Assembly (NCBI GenBank): GCA_964522105.1
Contig: CAZFVA010000004.1
Span: forward strand, 24,740-88,739
Source: an uncultured Anaeromyxobacteraceae bacterium
Lineage (GTDB): Bacteria > Myxococcota_A > UBA9042 > DTJE01
Length of the DNA: 64,000 nt
Reading direction: 5' to 3'
The position numbers and the translations under genes were made by a program. Below are positions 21,392 to 60,231 of the stretch, in pieces; positions within the stretch are counted from its first letter, which is position 1; every line of letters starts with the position of its first letter. The notes below the pieces were generated by a model. It ran no database searches, was not told where the DNA came from, and saw only the letters and a list, made by a program, of their open reading frames with translations.

Positions 21392-23556
21392 CCTCTTTCA
21401 AATTCCTGTTCGATCGTTCTCATGATTCGCTCGTAGACTTTTTCAGTCAGTATTTCGACGTCTGAAAGATCGGGATTATCCAGGACTCGGTTGTAAGTTT
21501 TATTCTGGTCTTCTTCTGGTACAAAACTATCGCTGTTCGGGTTGTCGTTTCGATTTGCTGCGTTTCTGCCTGTCAGTATTGAGCTTTGTTCGGCAGCCCA
21601 TAAGCCGGGTTGTCCAGTCTGCAACTGGTTTTCGCCCGCCCATTGATTGACGGCTCCATTGTGTCCTGAAGACATATCGTTCTGTGAGGACTTGCGGCCT
21701 GACTGGTTCAGTCCATGCAGATTGTTTGGTGTCGATAGTGTTCCTGAACTTGCCCGTTCTTTTTTGTCGAAGCTCGGGAGCGTCATCTCTGGTGATTTGA
21801 AAGAACTGACTGTTTCGTTGTGCAGACTGACAGTGGGTAGATTGTCTTGCGCAGCGTCAGTGGCATAGCCCGATTCCGCTCGTTTTGGCAGTTCGGGTGT
21901 CAAGTGGGATTGCAGCAGCGTCGGATACAGCAAAGATTTTGTTGCTTCGATGGCGGCTGAAGGCTGCCGGGCACCTGGCATGTGGATGTCATCATTATTG
22001 CCGGACTGCCTGTCCCCCGTTGAATCCGCTGATCGCGACAGCTTAAAGGCTCCGAGTTCAGTGGCAAATGGTGATAGCGAAGCATAAGGTCTAGTTGTGG
22101 CCGGTTCATATGGCTCTGCAGACAAGTCTGTGAATGTGCGCGTGGGTGCAGGCTCTTTCCGGGTAATGTTTTCCATTTTCGTGGACAGAGGCTTAATCGG
22201 TGATATGCCGGGGTAGTCAACGAGGTTCGAATAATTCCCGCGCGTGGACAGCCCGGGCTCAGTCGCCTGTTGTAAGACAGGGCGCTTGCGGACCTCTTTC
22301 TCCGGGTTGCTTCGAACGGTTGTTTCAAACTTATCGGATTGATTTCTGTCATAAGTCGACAGGAGCTCCGGCTTGTCTGGTAAAGCTTGTTCGGGCTTAA
22401 CTGACGTTATTAATGCGGCAAATTCAGGTTGAAAGTTTTTGAAATCAGAACCGGACATTTTACCGTATTTTTCAGGTATGGATTCGATTGCGCCGGTACT
22501 GTCTTGTTTCTGTGCGTTCGGTCTGGCTGGCAAGGCGGCACATTCATTCCTGCGGCTGTGCGCTGAAACGGTTTCCGGTTGGCTCGAAGCATTTGCAAGA
22601 TAGATGGAATCTGACAATTCTGATGCTGAATAAGTCGCGCTCAGTCTGCTTTTGAATTGATCGGCGCGGTTAACAGTTTGAAAAAAGGAGTTGTCAGTTC
22701 CTGCATCAATAGTTGTCCGGCGACCATTCTGCGCCGTGACATTGTTTCTTTCCTGTACCGATGCGGCTTTGTCGAATGTCGGCGTGCGCCCGGCTTCAGT
22801 GTTCAGGATCTGCGTAAGGTTTTTTGCGGAAGAAATGCAGCAGGTGGTGGCCTCGTCACCCGGCCTGAATTTTTCGGTGACTGATGGTGTGTTTTGAAGT
22901 ATTGACGGTGGTTCTGCCGGTCGAGTTGACAGCGCAAGGCCATCCTGGTGCCAGCCATTTGAATTGATTGAACTTATCGTGTGTTTCGGGCAGTCGGCCT
23001 TCCTGCCGGCCTTTCTTTCGGTCCGAATGGTCACAGCTTCGCCGTATGGCTGCAGTCCTGTTGAGCTGTCGGCCGAAGTGTGTGGCGGGCTTTTAATAGC
23101 GGTATTTCTGCCCTGGATATCTTTGTCGGCTAAAACCCCTGAGTACTCGGATCGGGATGAAAAGGTGTTGATAATATTTGTGGAGCAATCTGTTCTATGG
23201 ACGCAGCAGTCTTCAAAGCTGGTCGAGGCTTCGCGTTTTGCGTATGCGGGGACAAAGGTAAGGTTGCTCCTGCCGTGCGTTGCCAGCAAAGATTGGCAGA
23301 TGTCCGGAGAGCGCAAGTCTCTGTGTGTCAGCCCGGCGTGTCTTTCTGTAATTCGGTCGTATTCATGTGGCTCTTCGTTCTTTCGTTTTGACAGCCTCAG
23401 GTTTGTTTGAAGTGGAAAGTCTACCTCGAGGTCCTGCTGTTCACTGCTTTGCGCGTTGCTGCCAAGTGTTGTCTTGAAAGGTCTGGCCCCGATTGTTTTT
23501 ACTGGAAGGCTTTGATACCTGTCGGCAATGCGCCCGAAAGGGCCGGTCATTTCCAT
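21385..23556 (-). CDS. tape-measure-like protein; low-complexity S/T/N/Q/P-rich with a conserved-looking C-terminus
   Basis: 723 aa. Sits between the tube gene and the tube-initiator/hub genes (the conserved TMP position). Long polar low-complexity body with an ordered-looking C-terminus LTEKVYERIMRTIEQEFERGW. Confidence 0.5.
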   Translation of the reverse strand: MEMTGPFGRIADRYQSLPVKTIGARPFKTTLGSNAQSSEQQDLEVDFPLQTNLRLSKRKNEEPHEYDRITERHAGLTHRDLRSPDICQSLLATHGRSNLTFVPAYAKREASTSFEDCCVHRTDCSTNIINTFSSRSEYSGVLADKDIQGRNTAIKSPPHTSADSSTGLQPYGEAVTIRTERKAGRKADCPKHTISSINSNGWHQDGLALSTRPAEPPSILQNTPSVTEKFRPGDEATTCCISSAKNLTQILNTEAGRTPTFDKAASVQERNNVTAQNGRRTTIDAGTDNSFFQTVNRADQFKSRLSATYSASELSDSIYLANASSQPETVSAHSRRNECAALPARPNAQKQDSTGAIESIPEKYGKMSGSDFKNFQPEFAALITSVKPEQALPDKPELLSTYDRNQSDKFETTVRSNPEKEVRKRPVLQQATEPGLSTRGNYSNLVDYPGISPIKPLSTKMENITRKEPAPTRTFTDLSAEPYEPATTRPYASLSPFATELGAFKLSRSADSTGDRQSGNNDDIHMPGARQPSAAIEATKSLLYPTLLQSHLTPELPKRAESGYATDAAQDNLPTVSLHNETVSSFKSPEMTLPSFDKKERASSGTLSTPNNLHGLNQSGRKSSQNDMSSGHNGAVNQWAGENQLQTGQPGLWAAEQSSILTGRNAANRNDNPNSDSFVPEEDQNKTYNRVLDNPDLSDVEILTEKVYERIMRTIEQEFERGW

Positions 23557-24068
23557 GTTGAAAATCCGGCTTGAAGCGCCCCTTTCTTTTCGTTCTGGCT
23601 GCTGAAGTCAAATGATTCGTAAATGATTTCAATTTCTTCAAAAAGAAACCTGCTGGAATTTGAATCAAGAACAGGCCCTGAATATGCGGATAAAAAGGCG
23701 CCAAAAAGATTAAAACGCCCCGTCTCTTCTCCTTTGTCGTCGTTGATGATGATCGAAATACTTGTTCGTGCCTGTGGTTCTCTTGTCGGTCTGGATGAGG
23801 ATTTCATCCAGGAAACCAACTCTCTTGAGGCCGCGATGAACCCCCTTTTCAGCGTGAGAGGGGTAAATTTTCCCGGCCCTGGAAGAATGACCGGACCTGT
23901 CAGGTTGCCACCTTCTGAAAAGCTGAGGGTTTCTGATCGCCATTGAAGTCCGCGGGCTTCGGAAAATCTGCCGTGACAAATTCCATCTATTTCAATGGCA
24001 AATGAAAAGGATGTCAGAGGATCTGAGCGTCCGCTGCCGCCAGCGAGTTGTTCTAATGGATTGATCAT
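23547..24068 (-). CDS. contractile tail tube protein, paralog 2 (T4 gp19 / Afp1/5 family)
   Basis: FSFAIEIDGICHGRFSEARGL...ETLSFSEGG pattern typical of gp19-like tube proteins. 173 aa. Confidence 0.8.
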   Translation of the reverse strand: MINPLEQLAGGSGRSDPLTSFSFAIEIDGICHGRFSEARGLQWRSETLSFSEGGNLTGPVILPGPGKFTPLTLKRGFIAASRELVSWMKSSSRPTREPQARTSISIIINDDKGEETGRFNLFGAFLSAYSGPVLDSNSSRFLFEEIEIIYESFDFSSQNEKKGALQAGFSTWK

Positions 24069-24100
24069 CTGGACCCCCTTTGCTTTGAAAAAACTGTGCC

Positions 24101-25594
24101 CTATACGGTAGAGTCCATTCCAATCGAGATTCTGACGAATTTAGCCGGCTTGACTGGAGCCAGATCTATTTCGGCATGTATTCGGCCGGCCGAAATCTCT
24201 TCCGGGGGATTTGTTTCGAAATCGCACTTGACCCGCCATGCCTGTTCTGAAGTTTCCCCTGCGAGCATGCCTTTTTTGTGGAGTTCTCTTGCGAAGGCAG
24301 AAAGCTTTCTTGCGATCGTTTCCCACAGCGTTGCTTCATTCGGTTCGAATGCAGCCCACGCAAGACCCGGCTCGAGAGTTTTTCGTACCGCGTTAATGAA
24401 TCTGGCGGATCCCAGGTCCCATCCATCGGTGGTGACGGCTGCCCAGGGCCTGACACCTTGATGCTGGATAATGGTGTTCACGCCTGATGTGGCCAGGGTT
24501 GCCGCTGAGCCTGTGTTTGTAAACGAGGTCAGCTCTGCAACGTCGGTCAGTTTGATATTTGCCGGTGTTCGATGCGGGCCTGTTTCGTTGTCAATACGTG
24601 CGAAAAGCCCAGCGGCGTATGCGGAAGGAGGAGTCACCATTCCGGACGATGAAACAACCCACGGGTAATAGGCCGCTGCATGTCTTGATTGAAGTGGAAC
24701 GAACCAGTCGATTACTTCCTTCAAGCTGCAATGAGGCGGTGCGTCCAGGATGGCAATAGAGGCGCCTGTTCTGGTTGTGGCATTTACCAGAGCCATCTGT
24801 ACTTTCAGAACGCTGCTGATGTTCAGGAATGGCCCCATGCCAAGTTTTGCAGCTCTTGAATGCAGCCAGAATAAATCCGGGGCAAGAAAAGAGTCACATT
24901 CTTCTGTTCTGAGCAGGGCTTCAAGCGGAGAGTCTTCTTTTTGGAGTCTTTCGTTGGTGGAACCTGTGAAATCATCAGGCTCTGTCTCGTCGATAGCGTC
25001 CCGCCCTCCGGACATGATGATGTTCAGGCATTCGGGGATATTGGACAGATCGACTTGAAAAAGTCTTATTAAACGTTCTGCCGTGTTTGATCTGGCCGAC
25101 TGTAGATCAAAAAATTCGACAGTTTTTCTATTCAAGGCCGTTTTAAGCGCGCAAGAAATTTCGCCATTATGGATAGATAACGAAATGTTATTTCCAAACG
25201 CGCCTCTCTCCAGGGCTTCGGCACTGAAGATCGTTTTTCCTGATGAGTCAGTCAGGTTGTATCTTGCGCGGGAGGCATCTCTGGCAATAACTCTGCTTAC
25301 GAAGCAGCGTTCCCCGCCATTCATGAAATAGGCTCTGATGGAAGGTTCAAGCAGGCCACCGTCCGGAGATCCTCCAAATATTTGAATAAATTCATTTGGG
25401 CTGTGGATTTCCATGGCCTTTCTTTCCGGCCCGCGAACAGTCAGTCCCATAAACCCGGCCACACCAGTTTTGCGCAGCATGAGGGGTTGTTCTTGACGTA
25501 CAGAAGGTACAAAGAGGATGCCCGGTGTTTGATTGGTCATCTCTGTTTGATAACCCTGGTCTGTTCTGGTTGCGTCATGACGCTCTGGAATCAT
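24101..25594 (-). CDS. contractile tail sheath protein, paralog 2 (likely true start at MTNQTPGILF, about 25540)
   Basis: Sheath N-terminus TPGILFVPS...TGVAGFMGL. The segment ...YFMNGGERCFVSRV is equivalent to the sheath-1 motif FFSNGGGRCWIVNV. 497 aa. Confidence 0.85.
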   Translation of the reverse strand: MIPERHDATRTDQGYQTEMTNQTPGILFVPSVRQEQPLMLRKTGVAGFMGLTVRGPERKAMEIHSPNEFIQIFGGSPDGGLLEPSIRAYFMNGGERCFVSRVIARDASRARYNLTDSSGKTIFSAEALERGAFGNNISLSIHNGEISCALKTALNRKTVEFFDLQSARSNTAERLIRLFQVDLSNIPECLNIIMSGGRDAIDETEPDDFTGSTNERLQKEDSPLEALLRTEECDSFLAPDLFWLHSRAAKLGMGPFLNISSVLKVQMALVNATTRTGASIAILDAPPHCSLKEVIDWFVPLQSRHAAAYYPWVVSSSGMVTPPSAYAAGLFARIDNETGPHRTPANIKLTDVAELTSFTNTGSAATLATSGVNTIIQHQGVRPWAAVTTDGWDLGSARFINAVRKTLEPGLAWAAFEPNEATLWETIARKLSAFARELHKKGMLAGETSEQAWRVKCDFETNPPEEISAGRIHAEIDLAPVKPAKFVRISIGMDSTV

Positions 25595-25802
25595 TTATTT
25601 CTCTGTTTATTTCTGATATCTGCTGGACCCATTTGTGTCTTTCCCGGTGTTCCATTTCAAGGATTTCTTCCTGAGACCAGTGAAAATGGTACGCGACGAA
25701 GGCTACCTCCCTGTACAACTGGTCCAGGGGGTAGCGAATCATTCCCCCGGCTGGCAGTCTCCGCAGATGTCGTATTCGATTGATTGCGCACATGCCGGAC
25801 AT
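25575..25802 (-). CDS. small hypothetical protein in the −1 frame relative to the upstream small ORF (candidate assembly-chaperone partner)
   Basis: 75-aa ORF overlapping the 124-aa ORF by 64 nt. Its ATG follows a TAA in its own frame (AGC ATT AAA TGT vs TAA ATG). Confidence 0.4.
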   Translation of the reverse strand: MSGMCAINRIRHLRRLPAGGMIRYPLDQLYREVAFVAYHFHWSQEEILEMEHRERHKWVQQISEINREINDSRAS

Positions 25803-26113
25803 TTAATGCTGGCGATCGTTGAACCGTTTTCGTTGACCCGTTTGTACAATTCCTGCAGGTAGGCAAGGTCTGAAGCGTATAAATCTTCAATCACCGAAGG
25901 ATTAATTGATTTGAGATCTCCAAGGCTTGTGATTACGCGGGAAAGCAGTATTACCACCAGATAGGCTTTGTTCTGCTGGACTCTGTAATCCTGGAGCGGC
26001 GCAATTTCGTCTTTCGCGGTTGCCAGTCTCATCAGGCCCTTTTTGTGTACGCGCCCTTCCTTGTCTACAAAACCTTTTGGCAGAGTGAATTCGAATTCTG
26101 TTTTGAAGCTCAT
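25739..26113 (-). CDS. small hypothetical protein with C-terminal zinc-ribbon-like CPAC...CGDC (candidate tail assembly chaperone)
   Basis: 124 aa. AAGGA Shine-Dalgarno upstream. Sits between tube and sheath genes where phage tail chaperones usually lie. C-terminus IKCPACAQSIEYDICGDCQPGE. Confidence 0.45.
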   Translation of the reverse strand: MSFKTEFEFTLPKGFVDKEGRVHKKGLMRLATAKDEIAPLQDYRVQQNKAYLVVILLSRVITSLGDLKSINPSVIEDLYASDLAYLQELYKRVNENGSTIASIKCPACAQSIEYDICGDCQPGE

Positions 26114-26137
26114 GTTTTTCCTTTTTTGTTAGTGGGT

Positions 26138-26569
26138 TCAGGTGCGTTCAATTTTCTCTACTGCAAGTTCGATCTCTTCCACATTGACGTCAGATCCTTT
26201 GCCATCAAGAGAAAAGCCTTTCCATTTGCACGGCCAGGCATCGAAGAAGTTGTAGCGGACGATTTCTTCGCCATCGTCTGCGCATAGAATGATCGAGCCG
26301 GATTTGCGTTCTGCCTTGCCTTCGATCACTTTTTTCCGCCATTTCCAGAGTTCATCACTGGCAACATAGCCGCGCTTGAGCACAATGTTGGAGTACTTGG
26401 TTCTGCCAGGTCTTTTTCGCAATACGAGGTCATCACCATCCTGGTATTCGACGATCTCGGTTTCAGAGTCGAGGCCATCCACATTGCGAAAAGCCGCTTG
26501 AGTTACGCCTTCAATTTCAACTTTGAAATTGAAGTTTCCAATGTGGTCAAAATCCCTTCTGTTGTTCAT
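26138..26569 (-). CDS. contractile tail tube protein, paralog 1 (gp19 / Afp1 family)
   Basis: NFNFKVEIEGVTQAAFRNVDGL...EIVEYQDG, the classic tube-protein N-terminus. 143 aa. Confidence 0.85.
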   Translation of the reverse strand: MNNRRDFDHIGNFNFKVEIEGVTQAAFRNVDGLDSETEIVEYQDGDDLVLRKRPGRTKYSNIVLKRGYVASDELWKWRKKVIEGKAERKSGSIILCADDGEEIVRYNFFDAWPCKWKGFSLDGKGSDVNVEEIELAVEKIERT

Positions 26570-26601
26570 TCCGGTCCTCCATTCAAAGAATAGTCAGGTT
26601 G

Positions 26602-27810
26602 TTAATCCTTGACGTCCGCGCCGCCAGCCATCTGTCCGATCCTGAAGACAACGAATTCGGCAGGCTTTACCGGACTCATGCCGATATCGACGACGACCCT
26701 GCCTGCGTTTATTACTTCTTCGGGGTTAGTTTCCGAGTCGCATTTGACAAAAAAAGCTTGTTCCGGGGTTTTGCCGAAGAGGGCGCCCTGGCGCCACAGG
26801 CGCAGCAGAAATGCGGTAAGGTCGCGGCTGAGGCGCTTCCAGAGTCGCTCGTCGTTCGGTTCAAAAACGACCCAACCGGTGCCTCTTTCGATTGATTGTT
26901 CAGTCATCAGAAACAGGCGTCGCACATTTACATATCTCCAGACAGGGTCATCAGAAAGGGTTCTTGCGCCCCAGACTCTGATTCCGGAGCCTGGAAGGGC
27001 GCGAATGCAGTTGATGCCGCGCGGGTTAAGAAGGTCCTGTTCACCTGTTGTAATAAGGTACTTGAGGCCAAGAGCACCCCGGACAAGTTCGTTTGCCGGT
27101 GCTTTGTGAACGCCCCTTTCGGCGTCGCAGCGGGCATAGATGCCAGCTACAAAACCGGATGGTGCGGCCATGACACGGCCATGCACAGGGCTGGCAACTT
27201 CAATCCAGGGGAAGTAAATTGCGCCATGTTTTGAAGGCCTTGGCCTGGGGATGGTTTCGACCCCGCCTTTTTCAATTGTTTCGGGGCAGTCGAGAATTGC
27301 GAATCTGTATTTCATGATTTCGCAGTGAGTAAGGACAGCGTCCTGAATTTCGGGATCTGTTATGCCGGGTATGGCAACCAGACTGATGTCATCCAGCGTT
27401 TCAAGGGACTTAAGACCTGTTTTTCTACCTATGCCATCGTCGCGGCCGGCAAAACGGGCAATTTTGTCGGGTCTTGTCTTTCTGGCACTTTTCTTCGGTC
27501 GCTCCGGGTTGTCCGGCTCGATTTCTTCTGTATCGCCAGATTCGCTGAGGCCGACGTTGACGATCCAGCAGCGTCCCCCGCCGTTGGAAAAGAAACCGTA
27601 GACTGCCTGCGCAAGGTGCTCACTGTCCGAGAAGTCACCGAAGGTCTTTGTGAACATGCTCCAGTTGCAACAAAGGAACGGTTCATCAATCGGTCCTTTT
27701 CTGCATTCTCCGAGGAATGCCGCTGTACTTGAGCCGACCATTTCGAGAGGTCGTGCGCCGGAATCGACTTCCTCTACATAAACGCCGGGGGAGAGGTAAT
27801 TTGCTGCCAT
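26602..27810 (-). CDS. contractile tail sheath protein, paralog 1
   Basis: MAANYLSPGVYVEEVDSG...TAAFLG...FFSNGGGRCWIVNV and a C-terminal sheath domain. 402 aa. Confidence 0.85.
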   Translation of the reverse strand: MAANYLSPGVYVEEVDSGARPLEMVGSSTAAFLGECRKGPIDEPFLCCNWSMFTKTFGDFSDSEHLAQAVYGFFSNGGGRCWIVNVGLSESGDTEEIEPDNPERPKKSARKTRPDKIARFAGRDDGIGRKTGLKSLETLDDISLVAIPGITDPEIQDAVLTHCEIMKYRFAILDCPETIEKGGVETIPRPRPSKHGAIYFPWIEVASPVHGRVMAAPSGFVAGIYARCDAERGVHKAPANELVRGALGLKYLITTGEQDLLNPRGINCIRALPGSGIRVWGARTLSDDPVWRYVNVRRLFLMTEQSIERGTGWVVFEPNDERLWKRLSRDLTAFLLRLWRQGALFGKTPEQAFFVKCDSETNPEEVINAGRVVVDIGMSPVKPAEFVVFRIGQMAGGADVKD

Positions 27811-27842
27811 TTTGAGACTCCTGCCGTTTGCTGATAGTCAAG

Positions 27843-28436
27843 TCAGCGATTCGGGACAATCGAGAGGTCCCGCGCTGATACGCGCCTGAGGTCTTTCGAT
27901 CTGCGTTCGGATTCGATCCGGAATCGGACCAGGTAGAACAGTGTCGGCTTCATGTCACGCCCAAGGGTCTTCCAGAGGGAGAGGCATTCTGAAAAGTCGG
28001 TTTCGAGGTCCGGAAAGACTTCAAGGTGGTCGTTTTCAAGAAATGAGTCCCCGATAAGATCGCGGCCGGATATGAAGGGTTTTTCCAGCATGGATTTGAT
28101 GCAGAGACCGAGGAGAGTGTGTTCTTCCGGGGGAGTTCGAGCGTGTGCAGAGATGGCCAGTCGAGCGTGGAGTATCGCCGGGGCGTCTTCGTAGTATTCG
28201 ATCTTTTTTCCGGTTGCGTCTGTGCTGGTAACAATTCGATCGGTGCGTTCGCGGTAGCCGGGAGCGAACCGGATTCCGCAGATAAACATGCTGATTACGG
28301 GGAGGTTGCGAAGATTATCGCGAGTTGGAGTGTCTGTTGAGATGCGGACGGTTTCGAAACCTTCGCGGGAAGTTGTATCGCGGACGATTTTTTCAATGGT
28401 TGGGCAGATGTCCCGGATAACGTCAAAACGCGACAT
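27843..28436 (-). CDS. DUF4255-like tail terminator/cap protein (Afp16/Pvc16-like)
   Basis: 197 aa. N-terminal pattern M..DVIRDI...VRISTDTPTRDNLRNLPVISMFICGIRFAPGYRER parallels the DUF4255 consensus (V.ISFDAPTR...PTLNLFLYDIRENR). First gene of the operon. Confidence 0.55.
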   Translation of the reverse strand: MSRFDVIRDICPTIEKIVRDTTSREGFETVRISTDTPTRDNLRNLPVISMFICGIRFAPGYRERTDRIVTSTDATGKKIEYYEDAPAILHARLAISAHARTPPEEHTLLGLCIKSMLEKPFISGRDLIGDSFLENDHLEVFPDLETDFSECLSLWKTLGRDMKPTLFYLVRFRIESERRSKDLRRVSARDLSIVPNR

Positions 28437-32309: not shown

Positions 32310-34556
32310 ATGAAGCGGCCGATGAAGAGCCTTTGCCTTATTTGTTTAGTCATTATGGTTGCTTCGTGTGGCACTTCCACAGGGGGGCCTGACACCTCGA
32401 TTCAGGATACTCTGACGGAAGATCCAGGAATTGATCTTGTAATTGCTTATGACACCGGTAGTGACGAATCGGATGGCCGCGATATTGTTTCCGATATTGT
32501 CGAAATCGAGGATTTTGATACGGTTGAGGTTGATACCGGCATAGAGCCTGGATATTTCGGATACCCGTGCACTGACAATCGGGAATGTTTTGTAAGTTTC
32601 TGCGTTCAGTCTGCCGAAGGAAATATCTGCACCAAGAACTGCTATGAAGAAGGGGACTGCCCCGAGTCGTGGAAGTGCAGATCCATCGCTGGTGCCGGCG
32701 GAGATCCAATCTATATCTGTCTGCCATCGGGCATCTGGCTCTGCAAGCCGTGTGAAACAAATGATGCCTGTTCTTCAACCATAAATGTTTCAAACGACCG
32801 GTGTGTCGTTTATGGGTCGGCCGGTAATTATTGTGGTGTTTCCTGCGGTCAGAAAGATGATCCCGAATGTCCGGGTGGTTTTTCCTGTCAGGAAGTCTCG
32901 ATTGTTGGTGGCGGAACAGCGTTTCAGTGTGTGCCGGACAATCAGGAGTGCACCTGCTCGGAAGCTGCCATTACTGCGTCAGCGTCTACGGCCTGTTTTG
33001 TTTCGAATCCGTCCGGGGTCTGTCGTGGAAGGCGGGAATGCGTTGATGGCGGGTTGACCCCGTGTGATGCAAGAACTCCGGCTGCCGAGACCTGCAATGG
33101 CTTCGATGATAATTGTGATGGCACTACTGACGAGGAAGGGTCTGAGGGCTGTCGCCCTTATTACATTGATAATGATCAGGACGGTTGGGGAATAGGTCTT
33201 GCCCATTGCCTCTGTGGTGACCCGGGACCTAGTTACACGACGAAACCTGGTGACTGTAACGACTCGTCTCTCGGTATGAATCCGTCGGTTCGCGAAGTTT
33301 GTAACGGGATGGATGATGACTGCAACGGAATAACAGATGAACAGAATTCATTCGGTTGCACCGATTATTCCCTTGATAATGATGGTGACGGGTTCGGTCA
33401 GCCAGGTGAAAAACGGTGTCTCTGCCAGAAAACGCCGCCTTTTACCGGTGCGGCTGTGGGCGATTGTGATGATGCCAGGGCGGATATCTGCCCCGACATC
33501 GGTAAGTGCAGGGAAAAATGTGACACCGTTGATAATGATTGTGATGGATCAACTGATGGCGAAAACGCTCTCGGTTGTACACCGTTCTATTTTGACGCTG
33601 ACCAGGATACATATGGGCTTCCCAGTAAGTTCAAGTGCCTTTGTGGTGCGTTAGGTCTGTACACTGCCACGAGGGCCGGCGATTGCAATGACACTGATCC
33701 AGAAATCAATTCAACGGGCGACGAAATCTGCAATGCCCTTGATGACAATTGCAACGGCAAGACGGACGAAGGTGTAGATGCAGATCTGTGTCCGCCACCA
33801 CCAGGCGTTGTTCTTCATGGATCCACGGGTTGCGATAAGCAATGCAAGCTCACTTCTTGTGACGGGGCAACTGTTGATGGCATTGGTAATTACGTTCCGG
33901 CCTGGTACGACGTTAATGGTGTCGTAAATGACGGCTGTGAATGTCAGGCAGATGTCGGCGAACAGCGTGGCGGACAGACCTGCAATTCGGCCATCAATCT
34001 GGGGGCCGTTCCAGACAGCGGATTCAAGGTTTCTTCTGACAATACGAGAGGCTCGGCTATACCGGCTTCCGACGTTGACTGGTATGTGTTCCAGGCCTCA
34101 GATCCAACTTGGAATGGCGAGACCGGGAACTGTGATTACTACAACGTTAGAATAAGGTTTATTACGAACCCTTCGAATCAGTTTGTTTTTGATGTGTTCC
34201 GCGGGTCGTGCGCCGGTGCCGATCAGATTTGCAGTGAAAAACTTAATCATGAGTGGGCAGTAAATTTTATTTCAGGAAGCGGGTCGGCAAAGCGCGGGGA
34301 ATGCCCATGTTCCGCCAATTATCAGGCCAATTGTGATGCACCGGACAATTATCAGGAATGTTTGAGAGTTCAGGGAACGCCTCAGAATTGTAATTCCTGT
34401 CCCGGATACGGGTCTCCAAACAACAACGTCTGCACCGACAATTCAGCCAGGGTTTATGTGAAGGTTTTCAGAGATCCGCTGGTGGCCCCGACTTGTGCAA
34501 CCTATGAGTTGGAGATCAGCAACGGGTTGTATCCATTCTCGGGTACGATCAATTAG
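32310..34556 (+). CDS. secreted Cys-rich lipoprotein with MopE-like putative metal-binding repeats
   Basis: Lipobox IMVASCGT. Repeats CNGFDDNCDGTTDE, CNGMDDDCNGITDE, CDTVDNDCDGSTDG, CNALDDNCNGKTDE and others spaced by Cys-rich modules. Confidence 0.65.
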   Translation: MKRPMKSLCLICLVIMVASCGTSTGGPDTSIQDTLTEDPGIDLVIAYDTGSDESDGRDIVSDIVEIEDFDTVEVDTGIEPGYFGYPCTDNRECFVSFCVQSAEGNICTKNCYEEGDCPESWKCRSIAGAGGDPIYICLPSGIWLCKPCETNDACSSTINVSNDRCVVYGSAGNYCGVSCGQKDDPECPGGFSCQEVSIVGGGTAFQCVPDNQECTCSEAAITASASTACFVSNPSGVCRGRRECVDGGLTPCDARTPAAETCNGFDDNCDGTTDEEGSEGCRPYYIDNDQDGWGIGLAHCLCGDPGPSYTTKPGDCNDSSLGMNPSVREVCNGMDDDCNGITDEQNSFGCTDYSLDNDGDGFGQPGEKRCLCQKTPPFTGAAVGDCDDARADICPDIGKCREKCDTVDNDCDGSTDGENALGCTPFYFDADQDTYGLPSKFKCLCGALGLYTATRAGDCNDTDPEINSTGDEICNALDDNCNGKTDEGVDADLCPPPPGVVLHGSTGCDKQCKLTSCDGATVDGIGNYVPAWYDVNGVVNDGCECQADVGEQRGGQTCNSAINLGAVPDSGFKVSSDNTRGSAIPASDVDWYVFQASDPTWNGETGNCDYYNVRIRFITNPSNQFVFDVFRGSCAGADQICSEKLNHEWAVNFISGSGSAKRGECPCSANYQANCDAPDNYQECLRVQGTPQNCNSCPGYGSPNNNVCTDNSARVYVKVFRDPLVAPTCATYELEISNGLYPFSGTIN

Positions 34557-53230: not shown

Positions 53231-54208
53231 CTATTTAAGACGTTCGGAAACCTTTGTCGCAAGTTCCATCAGCTTTTCGCCATCGCAGAACGACCTTCCA
53301 CAGGACATAATGACCACAAGATTTTTGGCCGGGTGAACAAATCCGATGTGAAGGACTTCGTCCCAGTAGGAAAAGAAAGTCTTGCCGGAAACCGATGCGA
53401 TTTCCTGTGCTGACGGGTAGGAAGCCTGGAAAGTTTCGAATCTTTTCTTTGTGTCCTGAGCGTTTTTGCTTCTGAAAAGCTGCAAGGCAAATCCGAACGT
53501 ATTCCCTTTTTCCGGTGTGTAGAAGATTGAATCGGTGTCTTCGGTTCTTGGAACACCCGGAAGTGGCGATCTGCGAAATTTTGCTTTTGCCGGTGCGACC
53601 TTTTCGATGTCGGCAAGCGTAAGCAGAAGTCGTGGATCTGAAAGAACAGGTCTTGATGGATCCGGTGCAGGTGCCGCAGCCGCTTTCTGAGTTGCGGGGC
53701 CTGCTGTTTTTGCGGTTTCTGCCGGTCTGGCAGCTTCCACCGTTTTGCCAGCTTCAGTCGGTTTGCCCGCTTCAGCCGGTTTGCCAGTTTCCCCCGTTTT
53801 GCCCGCTTCCGCCGGCTGTCCGCCCTTGACGTCGCCAACTACCTTTCCAGCCGGTTCCGTACCCTTGTCACCTGACTTATCTACTGACTTGTCACTGTCC
53901 GCCGAGCTCCCGGCTGCAGCAGCAGCAACCTGGTCTGCCTTTCTGGTGTGAGTTGTTATCCCGGCTGAATCGGGTCTAGGTGCCGCTGAATCCCTGCCCT
54001 GTTCTTTCGAATCGGTCTTGGCGGCAGCTTTCTTAGTTTTCTTGATTGTTTCCGAAACGGCCTTGTCCGCAGGTTTCGGATCCTTTGAACAACCAATCCA
54101 GCAGACAGAAATTCCCACGAATAGACAAAATACGGCAGCATGTGCCAATAAAGGCCACTTTTCGCGCTTGAAATGCATCGAATCCTCCATCAGTTCCGCG
54201 TTGAGCAT
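53231..54208 (-). CDS. hypothetical anchored protein with a P/A/E/G/K-rich tandem-repeat linker
   Basis: N-terminal TM. Repeats PAEAGKTGETGKPAEAGKPTEAGKTVEAARPAETAK are mirrored by DNA tandem repeats at about 53700..53830. Confidence 0.45.
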   Translation of the reverse strand: MLNAELMEDSMHFKREKWPLLAHAAVFCLFVGISVCWIGCSKDPKPADKAVSETIKKTKKAAAKTDSKEQGRDSAAPRPDSAGITTHTRKADQVAAAAAGSSADSDKSVDKSGDKGTEPAGKVVGDVKGGQPAEAGKTGETGKPAEAGKPTEAGKTVEAARPAETAKTAGPATQKAAAAPAPDPSRPVLSDPRLLLTLADIEKVAPAKAKFRRSPLPGVPRTEDTDSIFYTPEKGNTFGFALQLFRSKNAQDTKKRFETFQASYPSAQEIASVSGKTFFSYWDEVLHIGFVHPAKNLVVIMSCGRSFCDGEKLMELATKVSERLK

Positions 54209-54617
54209 AGATTCTTGTTCCCGTCTCTGTCAACGAAGGCTCGCGCTGCCATATGACAAAGATATTTGCAGCGCGACAAAATCCGCGTCTTTGCTGGGTG
54301 ATCCCAATATTGTTCAAGGCCTTCACTACCATGATCAGCACGAAATAATACGAACTGGTGGCGAAGTGGCACGAAGGATGCTAAAATTAATTCATGGTGT
54401 GGGGTCGGCTTTCGTTAAGGCCGTCCGGAATGACGTAACTCTGTGAAATAGTAATTTTTTAGAGCTAACGGTTCCGGAGGGGGGACGCGTCGCTACGAAA
54501 ATGATGCGTACCCAGTGGCAAGAAACGGCGGAAGTTCGTCTCCTGGTAGATGCTGTCGACCGACCGGCGGTTGGTGGTACGTTGATGAACTGATGGTTTT
54601 GGACTGGAGGTGACACT

Positions 54618-57600
54618 ATGAAGTCGCTTCTCAAGTATGTGGCGGCGGTCGTTCTGTGTGCAGGACTGATTGCGCCTGATGCTCTTGCTATTGAAGTTGT
54701 GCCTCACAACATTAATATCCAGGGTGTCCTGAGAAACGTGGCGGGCGATGTTGTAACGGGAACTTACTCAATGAAGTTCTCCCTTTATGACGCTGGTACT
54801 GGCGGTACCGTGCTCTGCCAGAACATTTCCAACTTGACGGTGACCGGTGGTGTTTTCAATACCAGCGTTACCTGTCTTGCTTCGGCGTTCATCAACAGAA
54901 CGGCCGTCTGGCTCGGGATTACCGTAGGCGCTGATGCTGAACTCGAGAGAGTTCCGCTTGCGTCAGTTGGATTCGCCATTCAGGCGGAACATGCCGAGCA
55001 GGCTGATGAGCTTCTCGGAGCGGCCAGAGACGTGGACTGCACCGGTTGTGTTGGTGATACGGAAGTGTCATTCAATTACGCCTCCAGTGACAGTAAAGCC
55101 GGCCCGGCAAACGGTCTTGTTTGCGCCGGTTGCGTAAGCGGTGGTACTGGCGCTACGAGCGACATTGCTGCAGCAACGATTACGTCTGACAACATCGGGG
55201 CCGGACAGGTTGCGACTGGTAACATCGCGGCTGGCGCGGTTACCAATGCGAAGCTTGGCGCTGATGCTGTCAAGACCGGTAATATTGAAGACTATCAGGT
55301 GACGACGAATGACCTCGCCAACGGTTTGCTGACCTCGGCAAAATTTGGCGTCAATTCGGTTCCTGAAAGTGCCATTATTCCCCTGTACGCTCTCGGCGAT
55401 GCCAAGAGTGGCAACGCGAAGGGCCTGAACTGTTCGCCGGCATGCGTATCCGCTGCTGAAGTCAGTTTTACTTTCGCGGCATCCGGCACTCAGGGCGGAC
55501 CGGCATCGAACGTTGACTGTCTGGCCATCACCGGTGGATGTATCGAGGCTGGCGAAGTCAGTTTCAATTATGCAGCATCGGGTACGAAGGGCGGCGCAGC
55601 TTCAGATCTCAACTGCACCAACTGTGTTGCAAGCGGCGAAGTCGAGTTCAATTACGCGGGTTCTGCATCCGAGGGTGGCCCGGCGTCTGACCTTTCCTGC
55701 GCCAACTGTGTCGCTCTGGAAGAAGTCGGATTCAATTATGCCGGATCGCTTACGAAGGGCGGCGCGGCCAGTAAGGTCGAATGTACCGGCGCAGATGCCC
55801 CGTGTATCAGCACCGGCGAAGTTGATTTCTACTGGGCGGCCAGTGCCACAAAGGGCGGTGCCGCAAACGATCTGATCTGCACCACGTGCGTTCAGACCAC
55901 AGATCTTGACACGGCATCGGTTACTGACGTGAAGGTCGCCTCGGGAATCGCAGGTTCGAAGATTACCCAGGCTTCTGCGACCGCCTTTGGAACAGTGAAG
56001 ACCGGTCTTGGTATCACGGCGACGGGCGGTATCATAACCCCCGACTGGAATGAAGTCGCAACGAAGACTCACGCCCATACATCCTACTTCGCCAATGGTA
56101 CTGATAACCTGTCCATCGGCGATGGCAAGTACATTGACTTCGTCGATCCAGGTGATAACCCGGGTTCGTACGCGGCAAGACTGAGTGAAGCCTCCGCTGC
56201 GTCCGGTGGTGATGCTGTTCTGAGAGCGTCCCTTGGTGTTGCGTCTGCAACTCCGAGAGGGTCCTTCTTCGAAGTCTATGCTGAAGGCGGCATTGTTGGC
56301 AGTAAGCATAAGCTGTATGCCGGCGGTGATGCGTGGCATGCCGGCAATCTTCAGATTGACGGTACGCTCAGTTGCTCGGGCACTGGTTGTGTAGACAGCG
56401 CTGACATTACCAATGAATCCATTACCGGAACAGATATTCTGAACGGATCAGTGACCGGCGCGGATCTGGATCCGGCTCTGGCACTTACAACGACCGGGAA
56501 GATCACGGCTGGCGAAGTCTGGGCAACAAAGTTTGTCGATTCTAATGCCTCGGGATACTTCGCAGATCCGAATGCAGAGTCGAACATGAAGGATATCAAG
56601 TTTGATAACCTGAAGCTCGGCACGAACACGGTCTACGGTCTTATGAACAACGGAACAAGTACCCCTCTGTCCCTTTACACCAGCACGATTGATGCCGGTC
56701 AGGGTGGTGAAATCCTTTACATTCAGAAGAACAAGTGCGGCCTTATTGATGTTTATGGTGGCAGCGCATGCGCTCAGAACATCATGACCGTCCACGGTAC
56801 TGTGAAGGCCAGCCTGTTCTATGATGCAGACGGAGCGTACTACGTTGACCCGAATTCACACAGCTTGATCAAGTCCCTGAAGACTGACACGGTTGAAATA
56901 CCCAGAACTGGTACGACCACCAACTTCATCAGCGGCGTGACGACCACTTTCGATGTGCCGTGGAAGGACGCTCAGGGCGGTGACTATCAGGTTGATCCGA
57001 GTGGTGACACCAAGCTCAATGTCCTTTATGCCAATGGTGTTCGCCTGAACACGTCGTGGCCAGGTGATCCTGCTTCTGGTTCTGCTCAGGTTGCGAACCT
57101 GTCTCATAACCTTGTGCTGTCCCCGGACGCCATTGGTGGTGGCCAGTTCGTTTATATGAGGTATAACGGTGCCAATAGATTCTCGTTCGGTACGGCCGGT
57201 GGCGCGGACATCAACGTCCCGGGCTTCAGAACCGACGGCGGTTACCTTGTCATGAATTCCGGCGTTTCCAGTAAGCAAATCTACATGAACTGGGACTTCG
57301 GCGGCGGTACCGTTAATATCAACGGCGATCTGAACGCTGCAAGGTTGCTGGATCAAAGCGCGCTCGGCTGCGTGATGGATCCCGGCGCGGACTCGGCCAC
57401 ATGGCACATCTATTCAGCGTATATGTCTGCGCACTACATGAGGGTTCACCAGGGACTGCGCGTTGACGGCACCGGTATTTTCGTTGTCGGTAACGGCGAC
57501 TGGGGCACCGGTATCAGAATGAACGGTAATACCTCGATTATGCCGGTAGGCGATGCCGCTGGTATGATTGGATCGTCGTATCACCGCTTCTATTACATGC

Positions 57601-58013
57601 ATGCGGTGCAGTTCTTCGGTGCATTCTATGCTGGTATATCCAACAGAGAAGCGAAGAAGGACATCAAGTATCTGAACAACACCGACATGGAATCCATCGG
57701 TAACGCAATTCAGCAGATTAAGCCGACGACCTGGCTGTACAAAGAAGAAGTTATGGCGGGCAAGGTGCCGGAAGGAACTAAAGAGGCCTATATTCGTAAT
57801 GTGCCGCACGTCGGCGCAATCCTGGACGAAATGCCTGCTCTGATTTCCAACGGTGGAGCCACATGGTTCCTGAATGACTCAGTCGGCTTCCTTCTGGTCG
57901 CCAGTAAGTATCTTGACGACAAGATCAACAAGCAGGCTGGACAGCTTCGTGACCTGGAAGATCGCCTTGCGATCCTCGAACAGGCCGTTGTTGACGCTGG
58001 TCTGTACAACTGA
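54618..58013 (+). CDS. secreted tail-fibre-like protein with C-terminal S74-type intramolecular chaperone (autoproteolytic) domain
   Basis: GGAGGTGA Shine-Dalgarno. Signal peptide MKSLLKYVAAVVLCAGLIAPDALA. Tail-fibre-type repeats GNIAAGAVTNAKLGADAVKTGNI. About seven CxxC repeats (EVSFNYAASGTKGGAASDLNCTNCV). C-terminal ISNREAKKDIKYLNNTDMESIGNAIQQIKPTTWLYKEE...LEQAVVDAGL resembles the endosialidase/tail-spike chaperone domain. Confidence 0.7.
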   Translation: MKSLLKYVAAVVLCAGLIAPDALAIEVVPHNINIQGVLRNVAGDVVTGTYSMKFSLYDAGTGGTVLCQNISNLTVTGGVFNTSVTCLASAFINRTAVWLGITVGADAELERVPLASVGFAIQAEHAEQADELLGAARDVDCTGCVGDTEVSFNYASSDSKAGPANGLVCAGCVSGGTGATSDIAAATITSDNIGAGQVATGNIAAGAVTNAKLGADAVKTGNIEDYQVTTNDLANGLLTSAKFGVNSVPESAIIPLYALGDAKSGNAKGLNCSPACVSAAEVSFTFAASGTQGGPASNVDCLAITGGCIEAGEVSFNYAASGTKGGAASDLNCTNCVASGEVEFNYAGSASEGGPASDLSCANCVALEEVGFNYAGSLTKGGAASKVECTGADAPCISTGEVDFYWAASATKGGAANDLICTTCVQTTDLDTASVTDVKVASGIAGSKITQASATAFGTVKTGLGITATGGIITPDWNEVATKTHAHTSYFANGTDNLSIGDGKYIDFVDPGDNPGSYAARLSEASAASGGDAVLRASLGVASATPRGSFFEVYAEGGIVGSKHKLYAGGDAWHAGNLQIDGTLSCSGTGCVDSADITNESITGTDILNGSVTGADLDPALALTTTGKITAGEVWATKFVDSNASGYFADPNAESNMKDIKFDNLKLGTNTVYGLMNNGTSTPLSLYTSTIDAGQGGEILYIQKNKCGLIDVYGGSACAQNIMTVHGTVKASLFYDADGAYYVDPNSHSLIKSLKTDTVEIPRTGTTTNFISGVTTTFDVPWKDAQGGDYQVDPSGDTKLNVLYANGVRLNTSWPGDPASGSAQVANLSHNLVLSPDAIGGGQFVYMRYNGANRFSFGTAGGADINVPGFRTDGGYLVMNSGVSSKQIYMNWDFGGGTVNINGDLNAARLLDQSALGCVMDPGADSATWHIYSAYMSAHYMRVHQGLRVDGTGIFVVGNGDWGTGIRMNGNTSIMPVGDAAGMIGSSYHRFYYMHAVQFFGAFYAGISNREAKKDIKYLNNTDMESIGNAIQQIKPTTWLYKEEVMAGKVPEGTKEAYIRNVPHVGAILDEMPALISNGGATWFLNDSVGFLLVASKYLDDKINKQAGQLRDLEDRLAILEQAVVDAGLYN

Positions 58014-58132: not shown

Positions 58133-59230
58133 ATGCTTGGTCAGGCGGCTTTTTCTGCGGAAAGGATTATAACGATGAGCACCCCTACAGTCATGCAGGT
58201 GTCAGACGCTTTTGTGGCCTTTGAGGCTGGGGCGTCTGCGCCCGGTTTCAGTGTTACACGGCTTCCCGGAGATGCTTCAAACAGGTCGTATTTCAGGATC
58301 AGGCAGGAATCGGGCAGTCAGTCATGGATGATCATGAAGTTGGCGTCGGAGCCTTTTAAAAGCGAGGAAGGTCAGGGTGCCGGTACCGTGCAACGTCTTC
58401 CTTTTTCCGAGGTTTCCGAGTACCTGAGCCGTGGCGGGATTGGCGTTCCGGCGATTCTGGCAGAAGAAGTCGAGCGCGGGTTTCTGGTGCTGGAAGACCT
58501 TGGCGATGTGACTGTCGAACGGGCGCTTGTGGCCGGTGGCAGCAAGGTTGAGCTTTATCAGTGGGCTATTGATGTGCTTGTTGATATGCAGGCCTGGGCC
58601 AGGTCCAATCCCGACCCGGCTAACATCGCTTTTAATCGCAAATTTGATGCTGCTCTGCTGTTGTGGGAGTTTGAGCATTTCTATGAATGGGGGCTTGTCG
58701 AGTTGACCGGGACTGTTCCGGATGAGCATGACAGGGCCGTTCTGAAGGCTTTTTTTGATACGGTGACCAGCCGGTTGTGCAGCATCCCGCAGGGGTTTGT
58801 TCACAGGGATTTCCAGAGTCGTAATCTGATGATTCATGACGGCAGGATGCGTCTGATTGATTTTCAGGATGCGCTTGTCGGGCCGTTCATTTATGACATG
58901 GTCGCGCTGCTGCGGGATTCATACGTGAAGTTCACGCCGGAAGAGGTCGAGTATTTCCTTGGATACTATGCCGACGTCGGGGCCGGTGTCGGCCTTGTCC
59001 TGCCGCCGATTGAAGAGATGAAGAAGATGTTCCATATGCAGGCGCTTCAGCGGAAGCTGAAGGATGCCGGTCGTTTTGTGTTCATCGATCGGGTAAAGGG
59101 GAATCCGAAGTTTCTTCCGAATATCCCCCGGTCGCTGGCTTATGTCAGGGAGGCTTTTGATAATCTTCCAGAATTTAATGAAGTCAGGCTGGTCCTTGCT
59201 AAATATCTGCCGGAGCATTTCGGGCAATGA
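58133..59230 (+). CDS. aminoglycoside-phosphotransferase-fold kinase (AmgK-like anomeric sugar kinase candidate)
   Basis: APH-family motifs FVHRDFQSRNLMI and LIDFQDA. 4-nt overlap with the downstream nucleotidyltransferase gene. Confidence 0.6.
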   Translation: MLGQAAFSAERIITMSTPTVMQVSDAFVAFEAGASAPGFSVTRLPGDASNRSYFRIRQESGSQSWMIMKLASEPFKSEEGQGAGTVQRLPFSEVSEYLSRGGIGVPAILAEEVERGFLVLEDLGDVTVERALVAGGSKVELYQWAIDVLVDMQAWARSNPDPANIAFNRKFDAALLLWEFEHFYEWGLVELTGTVPDEHDRAVLKAFFDTVTSRLCSIPQGFVHRDFQSRNLMIHDGRMRLIDFQDALVGPFIYDMVALLRDSYVKFTPEEVEYFLGYYADVGAGVGLVLPPIEEMKKMFHMQALQRKLKDAGRFVFIDRVKGNPKFLPNIPRSLAYVREAFDNLPEFNEVRLVLAKYLPEHFGQ

Positions 59231-60231
59231 AAGGGTTTATTCTGGCTGCCGGTCTTGGTACCAGACTGAGGCCTTATACCGATGTGATTCCCAAACCTCT
59301 GTTCCCCGTTCTTGGAATACCATTGATTCACTGGGTTCTGAGAGGTATGAGGCAGGCCGGGGTTTGCGATGTCATGGTGAACCTGCACCATCTTCCCGAC
59401 GCAATAGTCAGCAATCTTGGCGATGGTGATGCGTTCGGGATGAACATCAGCTACCAGTTCGAGCCGCAGATTCTGGGCACCGGCGGGGCACTTGTCGCAG
59501 CAGATTCTTTTCTGCGGGATGACGACAGCTTCATTCTTCATAACGGTGACATTTTTACGGATTGGGATCTGCGAAGGCTTCTGGCGGATGGAGCGGCAGG
59601 TCCGGTGCTGGCTGTCGTTGACGGGCCGGGACTTGCCGAATCTGACAGGCGTGTTGAACTTGATTGCGCAGGACACGTGGCCAGTCTTCGCGGATTGCCT
59701 GTGGCTGGAAGTGGCCCAAAGGTTGTGTATGGTGGTGTTTCCCTGTTGAATCAGGATGTTATTAGATTACTTGGGGCGGCGACGTCTGGACGCAGCTCCG
59801 GGGAAGCGTGCCTGGTGGCGGATGCCCTTATCCCGATGCTTGCGGCTGGTCAGCCAGTTAATTCGGTCGATTATGACGGTCGCTGGTATTGTGATATCGG
59901 TACGCCCGCCAGTTATCTTGATTTGAATATGCGAGCTGTTCTTGATCCGGTTTGGCTGATGGCGAAAAGGGGTTTTGATGTGCCGGTGCAGATCGAACCA
60001 GGTGTGTTTGCGAGTGGCGACTGTAAGATTGGAAAAGGTGTGTCGTTTACCGGTCCCGCGATGATTTGTTCAGGGGCGGTAATCGGGGATGGTGCGGCAG
60101 TCGGCCCCGGAGCTGTGATCAGCGGCCATGTGGCAGGCGGGGCTTGTGTGTCGAGTGCAGTGGTTATGGCCGGGGCAGTCGCTGCAGGGGTCGTTTCAGG
60201 AATTGTCATGCCGGGTTATTCAATTAGATGA
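59227..60231 (+). CDS. sugar-1-phosphate nucleotidyltransferase (MurU-like) with C-terminal left-handed beta-helix domain
   Basis: MKGFILAAGLGTRLRPYTDVIPKPL (the G-x-G-T-R NTP-transferase motif). C-terminal hexapeptide repeats. Confidence 0.6.
   Translation: MKGFILAAGLGTRLRPYTDVIPKPLFPVLGIPLIHWVLRGMRQAGVCDVMVNLHHLPDAIVSNLGDGDAFGMNISYQFEPQILGTGGALVAADSFLRDDDSFILHNGDIFTDWDLRRLLADGAAGPVLAVVDGPGLAESDRRVELDCAGHVASLRGLPVAGSGPKVVYGGVSLLNQDVIRLLGAATSGRSSGEACLVADALIPMLAAGQPVNSVDYDGRWYCDIGTPASYLDLNMRAVLDPVWLMAKRGFDVPVQIEPGVFASGDCKIGKGVSFTGPAMICSGAVIGDGAAVGPGAVISGHVAGGACVSSAVVMAGAVAAGVVSGIVMPGYSIR

Follow-up and report, generated by a model that had tools for sequence, protein, structure and literature searches.

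A stretch of 64,000 nucleotides from contig CAZFVA010000004.1 of an uncultured Anaeromyxobacteraceae bacterium (the whole stretch is referred to here as the window) contains a gene whose 1131-amino acid (aa) product, the fibre protein, is likely to be an exported, probably homotrimeric, mosaic fibre of the cell surface similar to the MAT (mosaic adhesive trimer) fibres of Bdellovibrio. The order of domains within the protein, a set of conserved residues, the mosaic nature of the family to which it belongs, a promoter motif upstream of the gene and the synteny of the locus have all been observed, and each is described below. The gene and the parts of its product are as follows, with all coordinates being those of the window.

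54618..58013, + strand: fibre protein gene, precursor of 1131 aa (116 kDa), from the open reading frame (ORF) and its orthologues
54618..54689, + strand: putative Sec-type signal peptide, aa 1-24, predicted cleavage between ALA and IE, from hydropathy and the A-x-A site
54696..55025, + strand: conserved beta-rich N-terminal domain (N-domain), aa 27-136, from an AlphaFold2 (AF2) model and a survey of homologues
55038..55937, + strand: shaft, aa 141-440, eight Cys-pair repeats of ~28-32 aa each, from a repeat listing and the alignment of orthologues
55938..57638, + strand: distal region or head, aa 441-1007, from the alignment of orthologues, without family annotation
57639..58010, + strand: divergent Peptidase_S74/intramolecular chaperone domain, aa 1008-1131 (124 aa), from profile, alignment and fold searches
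57639-57641, + strand: putative nucleophile Ser1008, from the alignment of orthologues
57654-57656, + strand: putative general base Lys1013, from the alignment of orthologues

The fibre gene and its orthologues

The gene is an uninterrupted ATG-started ORF, with a Shine-Dalgarno sequence (GGAGGT) placed 6 nt 5′ of the start codon. The peptides quoted from its product in a first-pass annotation of this DNA are real, each having been found in the translation at the expected place: GVLRNVAGD at aa 36, GNIAAGAVTNAKLGADAVKTGNIEDYQVT at aa 201 and ISNREAKKDIKYLNN at aa 1007, with WLYKEE (aa 1039) and LEQAVVDAGLYN (aa 1120) in the C-terminal part. The GC content of the gene, 0.53-0.54, is the same as that of the surrounding DNA. 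The presence of an identical copy in public metagenomes, together with at least 20 full-length orthologues of 30-60% identity, indicates that the gene is real and under selection. These full-length orthologues come only from metagenome-assembled genomes (MAGs) of uncultured Myxococcota or ‘Deltaproteobacteria’, many of them from digesters or sludge. No paralogue of the fibre protein was found in the window, and a search of PDB sequences with the whole protein gave no match.

A predicted signal peptide and a widespread N-terminal domain

The proposal that the protein is secreted finds support in a predicted Sec signal peptide of a pattern common to the orthologues. The N-terminus, MKSLLKYVAAVVLCAGLIAPDALA followed by IE, consists of a basic n-region, a hydrophobic core of 13 residues and an A-x-A site, all three of which are kept in the orthologues, and the hydrophobic core is the sole transmembrane-like stretch in the protein. 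This signal peptide was called heuristically, from hydropathy, the A-x-A site and conservation among orthologues, and not by a dedicated predictor.

Immediately beyond lies the N-domain, which had also been anticipated in the first-pass annotation. It is made up of six strands and one helix and is the sole part of the full-length AF2 model to be confidently modelled (pLDDT 71-82). The domain is present in 110 of 125 retrieved homologues and in these it directly follows the signal peptide; it is presumed to be the cell-proximal anchor module. A profile built from 35 diverse N-domains matched 81,995 clusters at E <= 1e-3 among 1.84 billion representatives, and the matches with names also include KSB1, Verrucomicrobiota, Elusimicrobia, Saganbacteria and Bacteroidota. 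The N-domain matches no Pfam model in the copy of Pfam used here. Comparison of its profile with PDB sequences gave chance WD40-like matches only, and a homology search with the N-domain alignment returned short fragments only, with no bridge to Bdellovibrio. Across this large family, which is spread over many phyla and to which proteins P0171-P0308 belong, the domain usually comes immediately behind a signal peptide and bears the motif ‘(V/I)PxxINYQG.L’.

Most homologues share only aa ~25-175 with the fibre protein and then end in different domains. The tips seen in this position are fibrinogen_C (PF00147), COLFI (fibrillar-collagen C-terminal; PF01410), Lectin_C (C-type lectin; PF00059), Xlink (Link; PF00193), H_lectin/Gp53-like_C (PF09458/PF21882), pentaxin (PF00354), DUF4215 (PF13948) and canonical S74 (PF13884). 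Several members of the family can occur in one genome, with at least six N-domain proteins in the Myxococcales MAG AMXMBFR64 and two N-domain genes in each of two other MAGs. The N-domain family therefore combines one conserved end, diverse tips and several paralogues per genome, which is the combination looked for in MATs.

A divergent S74-type domain at the C-terminus

It had been suggested that the C-terminus of the protein resembles the self-cleaving chaperone of endosialidase and phage tail spikes. This has stood in the form of a divergent domain, although the protein's own Pfam score lies below threshold. A search with the hidden Markov model PF13884 (Peptidase_S74), which had been proposed as a check, did find a match, and position 1 of the profile falls exactly on Ser1008; the score, however, falls short of the Pfam gathering score of 22, at 16.5 bits when the whole protein is searched and 20.8 bits (E 4.9e-4) when only the domain is. 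The model also matches 14 of 16 orthologous C-termini (best E 8.1e-5), and a more distant homologue, P0028, reaches 23.8 bits, which is above threshold; the C-terminus of P0028 is related to that of the fibre protein with a BLAST E of 3e-19. None of 21 aligned sequences, at 34-60% identity, departs from Ser1008 or Lys1013, the two residues of an S-x4-K dyad (here SNREAK). As is the rule for the S74 family, the domain forms the very end of the protein and comes straight after the beta-rich fibre region; it runs to the stop codon and closes with a long helix (aa ~1085-1126).

Alignments with known members of the family place the same residues in register. The full-length family profile aligns with the L-shaped tail fibre of phage T5 (4uw8) over the pre-cleavage strand and the cleavage site, with a marginal E of 0.067, and the S1264A site of this protein, T5 pb1 (the deposited S->A mutant reads ADARLK), aligns with the Ser1008 site. 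In an hhalign comparison with the canonical S74 domains of three relatives that themselves bear the N-domain, the alignment was in register, Ser with Ser and Lys with Lys, at an E of 0.005; the motif of these relatives that aligns with SNREAK is SSARYK, and a score of 39.1 bits was obtained for one of them, P0035.

The predicted fold also resembles that of S74 domains. An AF2 model of aa 985-1131 has a pLDDT of 76.7 and its best Foldseek matches in the PDB are the three solved S74 families, namely the MyRF ICA domain (7dc3), T5 (4uw8) and endoNF (3gw6), with MyRF ICA (7DC3) at the top (TM 0.45, probability 0.69). Among the best 50 fold matches in BFVD most have S74, IMC, endosialidase-chaperone or tail-fibre names or are nameless, with probabilities of up to 1.00 and TM values of 0.44-0.53.

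A number of results count against this assignment. Besides the Pfam score, the Asp found in the canonical SDxxxK has not been conserved, the fibre protein having SNREAK at this place. No fold search with the C-terminal model produced an E-value reaching 0.001. A profile of the C-terminal domain found only coiled coils, and no S74 chain, among PDB sequences, and it did not match the deposited sequence of Bd3182 632-922. A homology search with the C-terminal alignment gave short fragments only and no bridge to named S74 proteins. The score below the Pfam threshold and the coiled coils found in the PDB are what would be expected if the resemblance were fortuitous, the protein ending in a coiled-coil tail with a chance S-x4-K and undergoing no autoprocessing. 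We regard this as very unlikely, since a chance motif would not explain the invariance of Ser and Lys over 21 sequences, the register shared with the start of the Pfam model, with T5 pb1 and with canonical S74 domains, the homologue above the Pfam threshold, or fold searches in which almost all of the named BFVD matches are S74 or tail-fibre proteins; the chance explanation was rejected for these reasons. No single S74 E-value is strong, and the call rests on all of the lines together: it holds because the invariant Ser and Lys, the T5 alignment, the above-threshold homologue and the fold searches add to one another. We therefore conclude with considerable confidence that the fibre protein ends in a divergent S74 domain.

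In Bdellovibrio, the MAT protein Bd3182 is cleaved before Ser782 (PMC10769870). By analogy, cleavage of the fibre protein is placed at Ile1007-Ser1008, which would yield a 100.1-kDa fibre (aa 25-1007) and a 13.8-kDa fragment.

Three relatives, P0035, P0056 and P0065, have the N-domain and a canonical S74 domain (39 bits for P0035) followed by a hydrophobic, transmembrane-like C-terminal segment. This topology resembles that of MyRF, in which autocleavage frees the protein from a membrane anchor.

The shaft and the distal head

The repeats of the shaft follow the consensus C-x2-6-C-V-x3-E-V-x-F-N-Y-A-x-S-x2-K-G-G-x-A, with the Cys pair opening each unit. No Pfam family covers this repeat of 28 aa, which may be previously undescribed. 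The Cys-pair repeats are broken at aa ~176-262 by phage-fibre-like ‘AVTxxKLAxDAV’ repeats, and two matches to phage proteins fall on these: a PHROG tail fibre match (E 1.7e-4, aa 179-293) and a match of the family to orf16 of Legionella phage LME-1 (9eg4_H, chain H of capsid entry 9EG4; E 5.7e-4). Both agree with the earlier description of repeats in the style of phage tail fibres. When 21 orthologues were aligned, 16 of the 16 repeat cysteines were found to be invariant or nearly so, as are those of two Cys pairs further on (586/591 and 707/718), beyond the eight pairs of the shaft. Judged from the sequence, such conservation is as expected for structural disulfides in an exported protein. 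The ~28 aa Cys-pair repeat is also seen in other contexts (P0032, P0039, P0042, P0068, P0089 and P0115) at 50-70% identity per unit; some homologues match mainly through this repeat, among them P0115, which is assigned to an Altiarchaeota MAG.

The head has no family annotation. Alignment of the orthologues shows it to be conserved and not hypervariable. Its invariant residues include H485-x-H487, H564 and H574; in addition to the two Cys pairs it has three Y-x-x-D-P-x3-S motifs and a pre-cleavage strand motif, and the ~50 aa at its end can be aligned with the part of the T5 L-shaped tail fibre that precedes the cleavage site. HxH motifs serve as metal-ion binding sites on the threefold axis of several phage fibres. 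A different head is found in more distant orthologues (P0018-P0025, for example at L007 10001-13366), where it consists of repeated ‘NWFRAQGQxG.YF..YGGGW.M.D..WIRAYN’ units. These units match Pfam Shufflon_N (PF04917; E 1.6e-22 in P0021), which is the constant region of PilV-type pilus adhesins, and the head of the fibre protein itself has no match to Shufflon_N.

Comparison with known fibres

The features of MATs as set out by Caulton et al. in 2024 are a signal peptide with a conserved beta-rich N-terminal domain of ~130 aa directly behind it, a long trimeric fibre and an S74 (SDxxxK) or other adhesive tip (PMC10769870). These proteins are displayed at the surface and have a role in prey handling, and Supplementary Table S3 of the same study lists MATs in Myxococcales and Bradymonadaceae (PMC10769870). 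Compared with the S74 group of Bdellovibrio MATs (Bd3182), the fibre protein is alike in its architecture of a predicted signal peptide followed by a conserved beta-rich N-terminal domain of ~110-130 aa, a repeat-rich fibre of ~1000 aa and a C-terminal S74 domain with an S-x4-K dyad; each of the two families combines an N-domain of its own with many tips and has several paralogues in one genome. It is unlike them in its shaft, which is made of ~28 aa Cys-pair repeats rather than a beta-helix with capping loops, and in its S74 domain, which is divergent (SNREAK, below the Pfam threshold). The gene also differs in being a single-copy syntenic orthologue under a sigma-54 promoter, and the host is an uncultured Myxococcota lineage. 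The likeness to chimeric fibres of predatory bacteria that had been claimed for the protein is thus borne out to the extent that its architecture and the mosaic logic of its family match those of MATs; as seen from sequence, membership of the MATs is suggested and falls short of full proof.

Other proteins share single parts of this design. The chaperone of endoNF (3GW6), the founder of MEROPS S74 and PF13884, is a C-terminal domain that bears a Ser-Lys dyad and releases itself, and a trimeric beta-rich stalk comes before it; the fibre protein is predicted to be alike in each respect. The MyRF ICA domain (7DC3) is alike in length and in the order of its elements; MyRF is a eukaryotic membrane-bound transcription factor, and the two are related only as members of one domain family. 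T5 pb1 (4UW8), the C-terminal domain of which has an intramolecular chaperone, is by contrast a virion protein made in the cytoplasm, without a signal peptide or N-terminal anchor.

Promoter, leader and neighbouring genes

The features around the fibre gene that recur with it in other genomes are as follows.

53231..54208, - strand: divergent putative lipoprotein gene, from its lipobox and synteny
54367..54382, + strand: sigma-54-type promoter match TGGCACGAAGGATGCT, ~250 nt 5′ of the ATG, from a motif scan
54492..54530, + strand: conserved 5′ leader element GCTACGAAAATGATGCGTACC..GTGGCAAGAAACGGCG, from a comparison of orthologue leaders
58133-60231, + strand: amgK-like kinase, then murU-like nucleotidyltransferase, downstream of the fibre gene, from NCBIfam and synteny

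The sigma-54 motif TGGYAY-N6-TGCT has two matches in the window, against 0.41 expected. It is found on the same strand and 224-323 nt upstream of the fibre ATG in 20 of 20 loci (L001-L020), these being the loci that were fetched with the start of the fibre gene and that amount to ~16 distinct sequences; in each locus the motif at the fibre gene is nearly the sole match. The leader element, in a region at ~54492-54595 of the window, keeps a constant spacing of ~135 nt to the promoter and contains a partial inverted repeat. It is possible that the element begins a short upstream ORF (MMRTQWQETA..., 10-47 codons depending on the locus). The leader has no match in Rfam, and neither a consensus RNA structure nor covariation was found across the loci.

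The divergent gene encodes a putative lipoprotein in which a lipobox is followed by a low-complexity, disordered A/K/P/E linker that varies among orthologues and then by a conserved C-terminal domain (~140 aa) that has two conserved Cys. The gene adjoins the fibre gene in 16 of 20 loci, with two of the other four ending at a contig edge, and a lipobox is present in all eight lipoprotein N-termini that could be read (L001, L004, L009, L011, L015, L016, L017 and L020). The lipoprotein has no Pfam, NCBIfam, PHROG or PDB match. Synteny makes it a candidate partner of the fibre. On the other side, amgK-like and murU-like genes lie directly 3′ of the fibre gene, followed by lnt, in every orthologue locus that is long enough. 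The best NCBIfam matches of the amgK-like and murU-like genes are well below the equivalog cut-offs, and no terminator-like site was found between the fibre gene and these two genes. Read along the locus, the genes are divergent lipoprotein, fibre, amgK-like and murU-like, then in some loci a CPBP protease, and finally lnt, which is on the opposite strand; loci with as little as 30% fibre identity retain this arrangement, with the far upstream side varying, and the neighbour order is conserved in ~14 species-level genomes.

Alternative explanations

Several further observations sit uneasily with a MAT-like surface fibre. A beta-helix capping-loop motif, V-G-G/N-x-x-x-P-x-x-x-L, placed ahead of the tip, is reported for several Bdellovibrio MATs, though it is not stated to be universal (Supplementary Fig. 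18, PMC10769870), and it has no match anywhere in the fibre protein. The likeness of the N-domain to that of Bdellovibrio MATs is one of architecture only and no homology is claimed; the PDB contains no N-terminal sequence of a Bdellovibrio MAT. The full-length AF2 monomer model is poor (pLDDT 40.5), including the shaft, and so a modelled shaft fold, head fold or oligomeric state would draw no support from it. No route across the outer membrane is evident for the protein. Finally, the fibre family described here is single-copy and syntenic and not a diversifying arsenal, which fits a conserved ligand better than it does broad recognition of prey. The last point leads to a different view of function, in which the same exported, S74-matured fibre has a structural or self-directed role and does not adhere to other cells; it could possibly be a component of a matrix or fibril, an envelope-attached spacer, or a fibre for the recognition of kin or of the cell's own surface. 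Vertical inheritance of a single-copy gene at a fixed position beside envelope-related genes (lipoprotein, amgK/murU-like and lnt), a head that is conserved and not hypervariable and the conservation of sigma-54 control would all be in keeping with such a role. Set against this, all of the proteins of the same architecture that have been characterised, namely the fibres of phages and the MATs of Bdellovibrio, attach to the surfaces of foreign cells (PMC10769870), and related mosaic proteins bear carbohydrate-binding tips (lectins and fibrinogen-C). We think a self-directed role unlikely on balance, but because the gene is single-copy and syntenic and the head conserved, broad prey recognition has a serious rival in a conserved ligand or in a structural or self-directed role.

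The similarity to phage fibres might instead point to a tail fibre of an injection system or of a phage. The window contains a contractile injection system (CIS) cluster at 19530-28436 (- strand), made up of a Pvc16-like cap, two sheath paralogues, two gp19-type tube genes, a chaperone-like gene, a gene for a 723-aa unknown protein, a CIS_tube-domain gene and a tail-protein-like gene; no baseplate wedge, spike, PAAR or AAA ATPase was recognised by Pfam and PHROGs, and the cluster looks partial. The first-pass annotation had offered the fibre protein as the missing fibre of this CIS, which would require a fibre that is produced on its own and then joined to the baseplate. Phage-fibre-type repeats and an S74 domain are indeed found in many phage and CIS fibres, and the cluster has no fibre gene recognisable by Pfam or PHROGs. 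CIS particles, whether extracellular (eCIS) or those of the type VI secretion system (T6SS), assemble in the cytoplasm, whereas the predicted Sec signal and the disulfide-type Cys pairs of the fibre protein imply an extracytoplasmic location. A fibre of an eCIS (Afp13/Pvc13-like) would be expected to be cytoplasmic, without an export signal, and to be encoded in the CIS cluster and inherited with it. Here the distance between cluster and fibre gene is 26 kb, occupied by ~20 unrelated genes on both strands that include housekeeping functions (uvrA, PP2C phosphatase, MopE-repeat protein, dnaG, rpoD, Mur ligase, pcnB, recD2 and others), and in the loci examined the 10 kb around each fibre orthologue contains no CIS gene. 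The conserved partners of the fibre gene are the lipoprotein, amgK/murU-like and lnt genes, and the distant locus L007 is syntenic on the amgK/murU/lnt side and not on the side facing the CIS. The ~82,000 clusters that make up the family of the N-domain are of proteins with signal peptides, and the wedge and spike genes are also unrecognised, so that a fibre is not the sole component missing from the cluster. A CIS fibre is accordingly highly improbable and was rejected on the predicted signal peptide, the distance and the other conserved neighbours. Equally improbable is that the protein is the tail fibre of a prophage, whether intact or a remnant. The PHROG tail-fibre match, the S74 domain and an HxH motif typical of phage fibres could be read in this way, but there are no flanking phage genes; the neighbours are housekeeping genes in conserved order in ~14 species-level genomes, the composition is host-like, a signal peptide is predicted and the sigma-54 promoter is conserved with the gene. 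This candidate too was rejected, for want of phage neighbours and given the conserved chromosomal position.

The CIS cluster is flanked by uvrA on one side and, on the other, by an unannotated 614-aa ORF and then an LTD/MopE-repeat protein. Putative metal-binding repeat proteins of MopE type are encoded at 15653-17290 (- strand) and 32310-34556 (+ strand), flanking the CIS/uvrA region, and one of the two also carries a lamin-tail domain.

A model for the assembly of the fibre

On the preferred reading, that of an exported MAT-like fibre, a sequence of events can be proposed in which trimerisation, cleavage, surface display, anchoring, the route of export across the outer membrane and the ligand are the elements that we infer. 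Transcription would depend on sigma-54 and would be switched on by some enhancer-binding activator. The precursor would then be exported by Sec and, as its sequence suggests, its signal peptide would be removed after Ala24. From the established behaviour of S74 domains it may be expected that those of three chains associate outside the cytoplasm and nucleate the folding of the fibre from the C-terminus backwards, with the ten conserved Cys pairs forming disulfides. Given the invariance of both residues, Ser1008 activated by Lys1013 could cut the Ile1007-Ser1008 bond; the 13.8-kDa chaperone would be freed, leaving a 100-kDa mature fibre (aa 25-1007) with a new C-terminal tip exposed. By analogy with Bdellovibrio MATs, the N-domain may hold the fibre at the envelope, possibly via the adjacent lipoprotein, and the distal head may bind a ligand on another surface.

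A more specific suggestion is that the fibre, more than one interchangeable adhesin among others, is part of a dedicated, vertically inherited surface apparatus that is sigma-54-controlled, disulfide-stapled, lipoprotein-anchored and tied to genes for the salvage of N-acetylmuramic acid (MurNAc), the amgK/murU-like pair. We put this forward tentatively and think it unlikely as it stands. If it were true, the fibre might, for example, capture peptidoglycan-bearing prey or debris for the scavenging of cell-wall sugars.

Implications

The finding leaves current concepts unchanged. To our knowledge, MAT-type fibres have so far been characterised only in Bdellovibrio, where they serve in prey recognition and handling, and the same fibre design would here be carried by an uncultured Myxococcota lineage. 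What is distinctive in this case is the Cys-pair repeat of the shaft, the divergent S74 domain, the sigma-54 control and the conserved lipoprotein neighbour. Since the N-domain family comprises ~82,000 clusters across many phyla and is without a Pfam model, it may represent a widespread and under-annotated way to build cell-surface fibres. The fibre gene offers a tractable case of this design: only one conserved gene is involved, its product has a predicted self-cleavage site, and a conserved sigma-54 promoter and the gene of a candidate lipoprotein partner lie beside it. The lipoprotein could in turn inform the question of how such fibres are anchored and exported, which also stands in Bdellovibrio.

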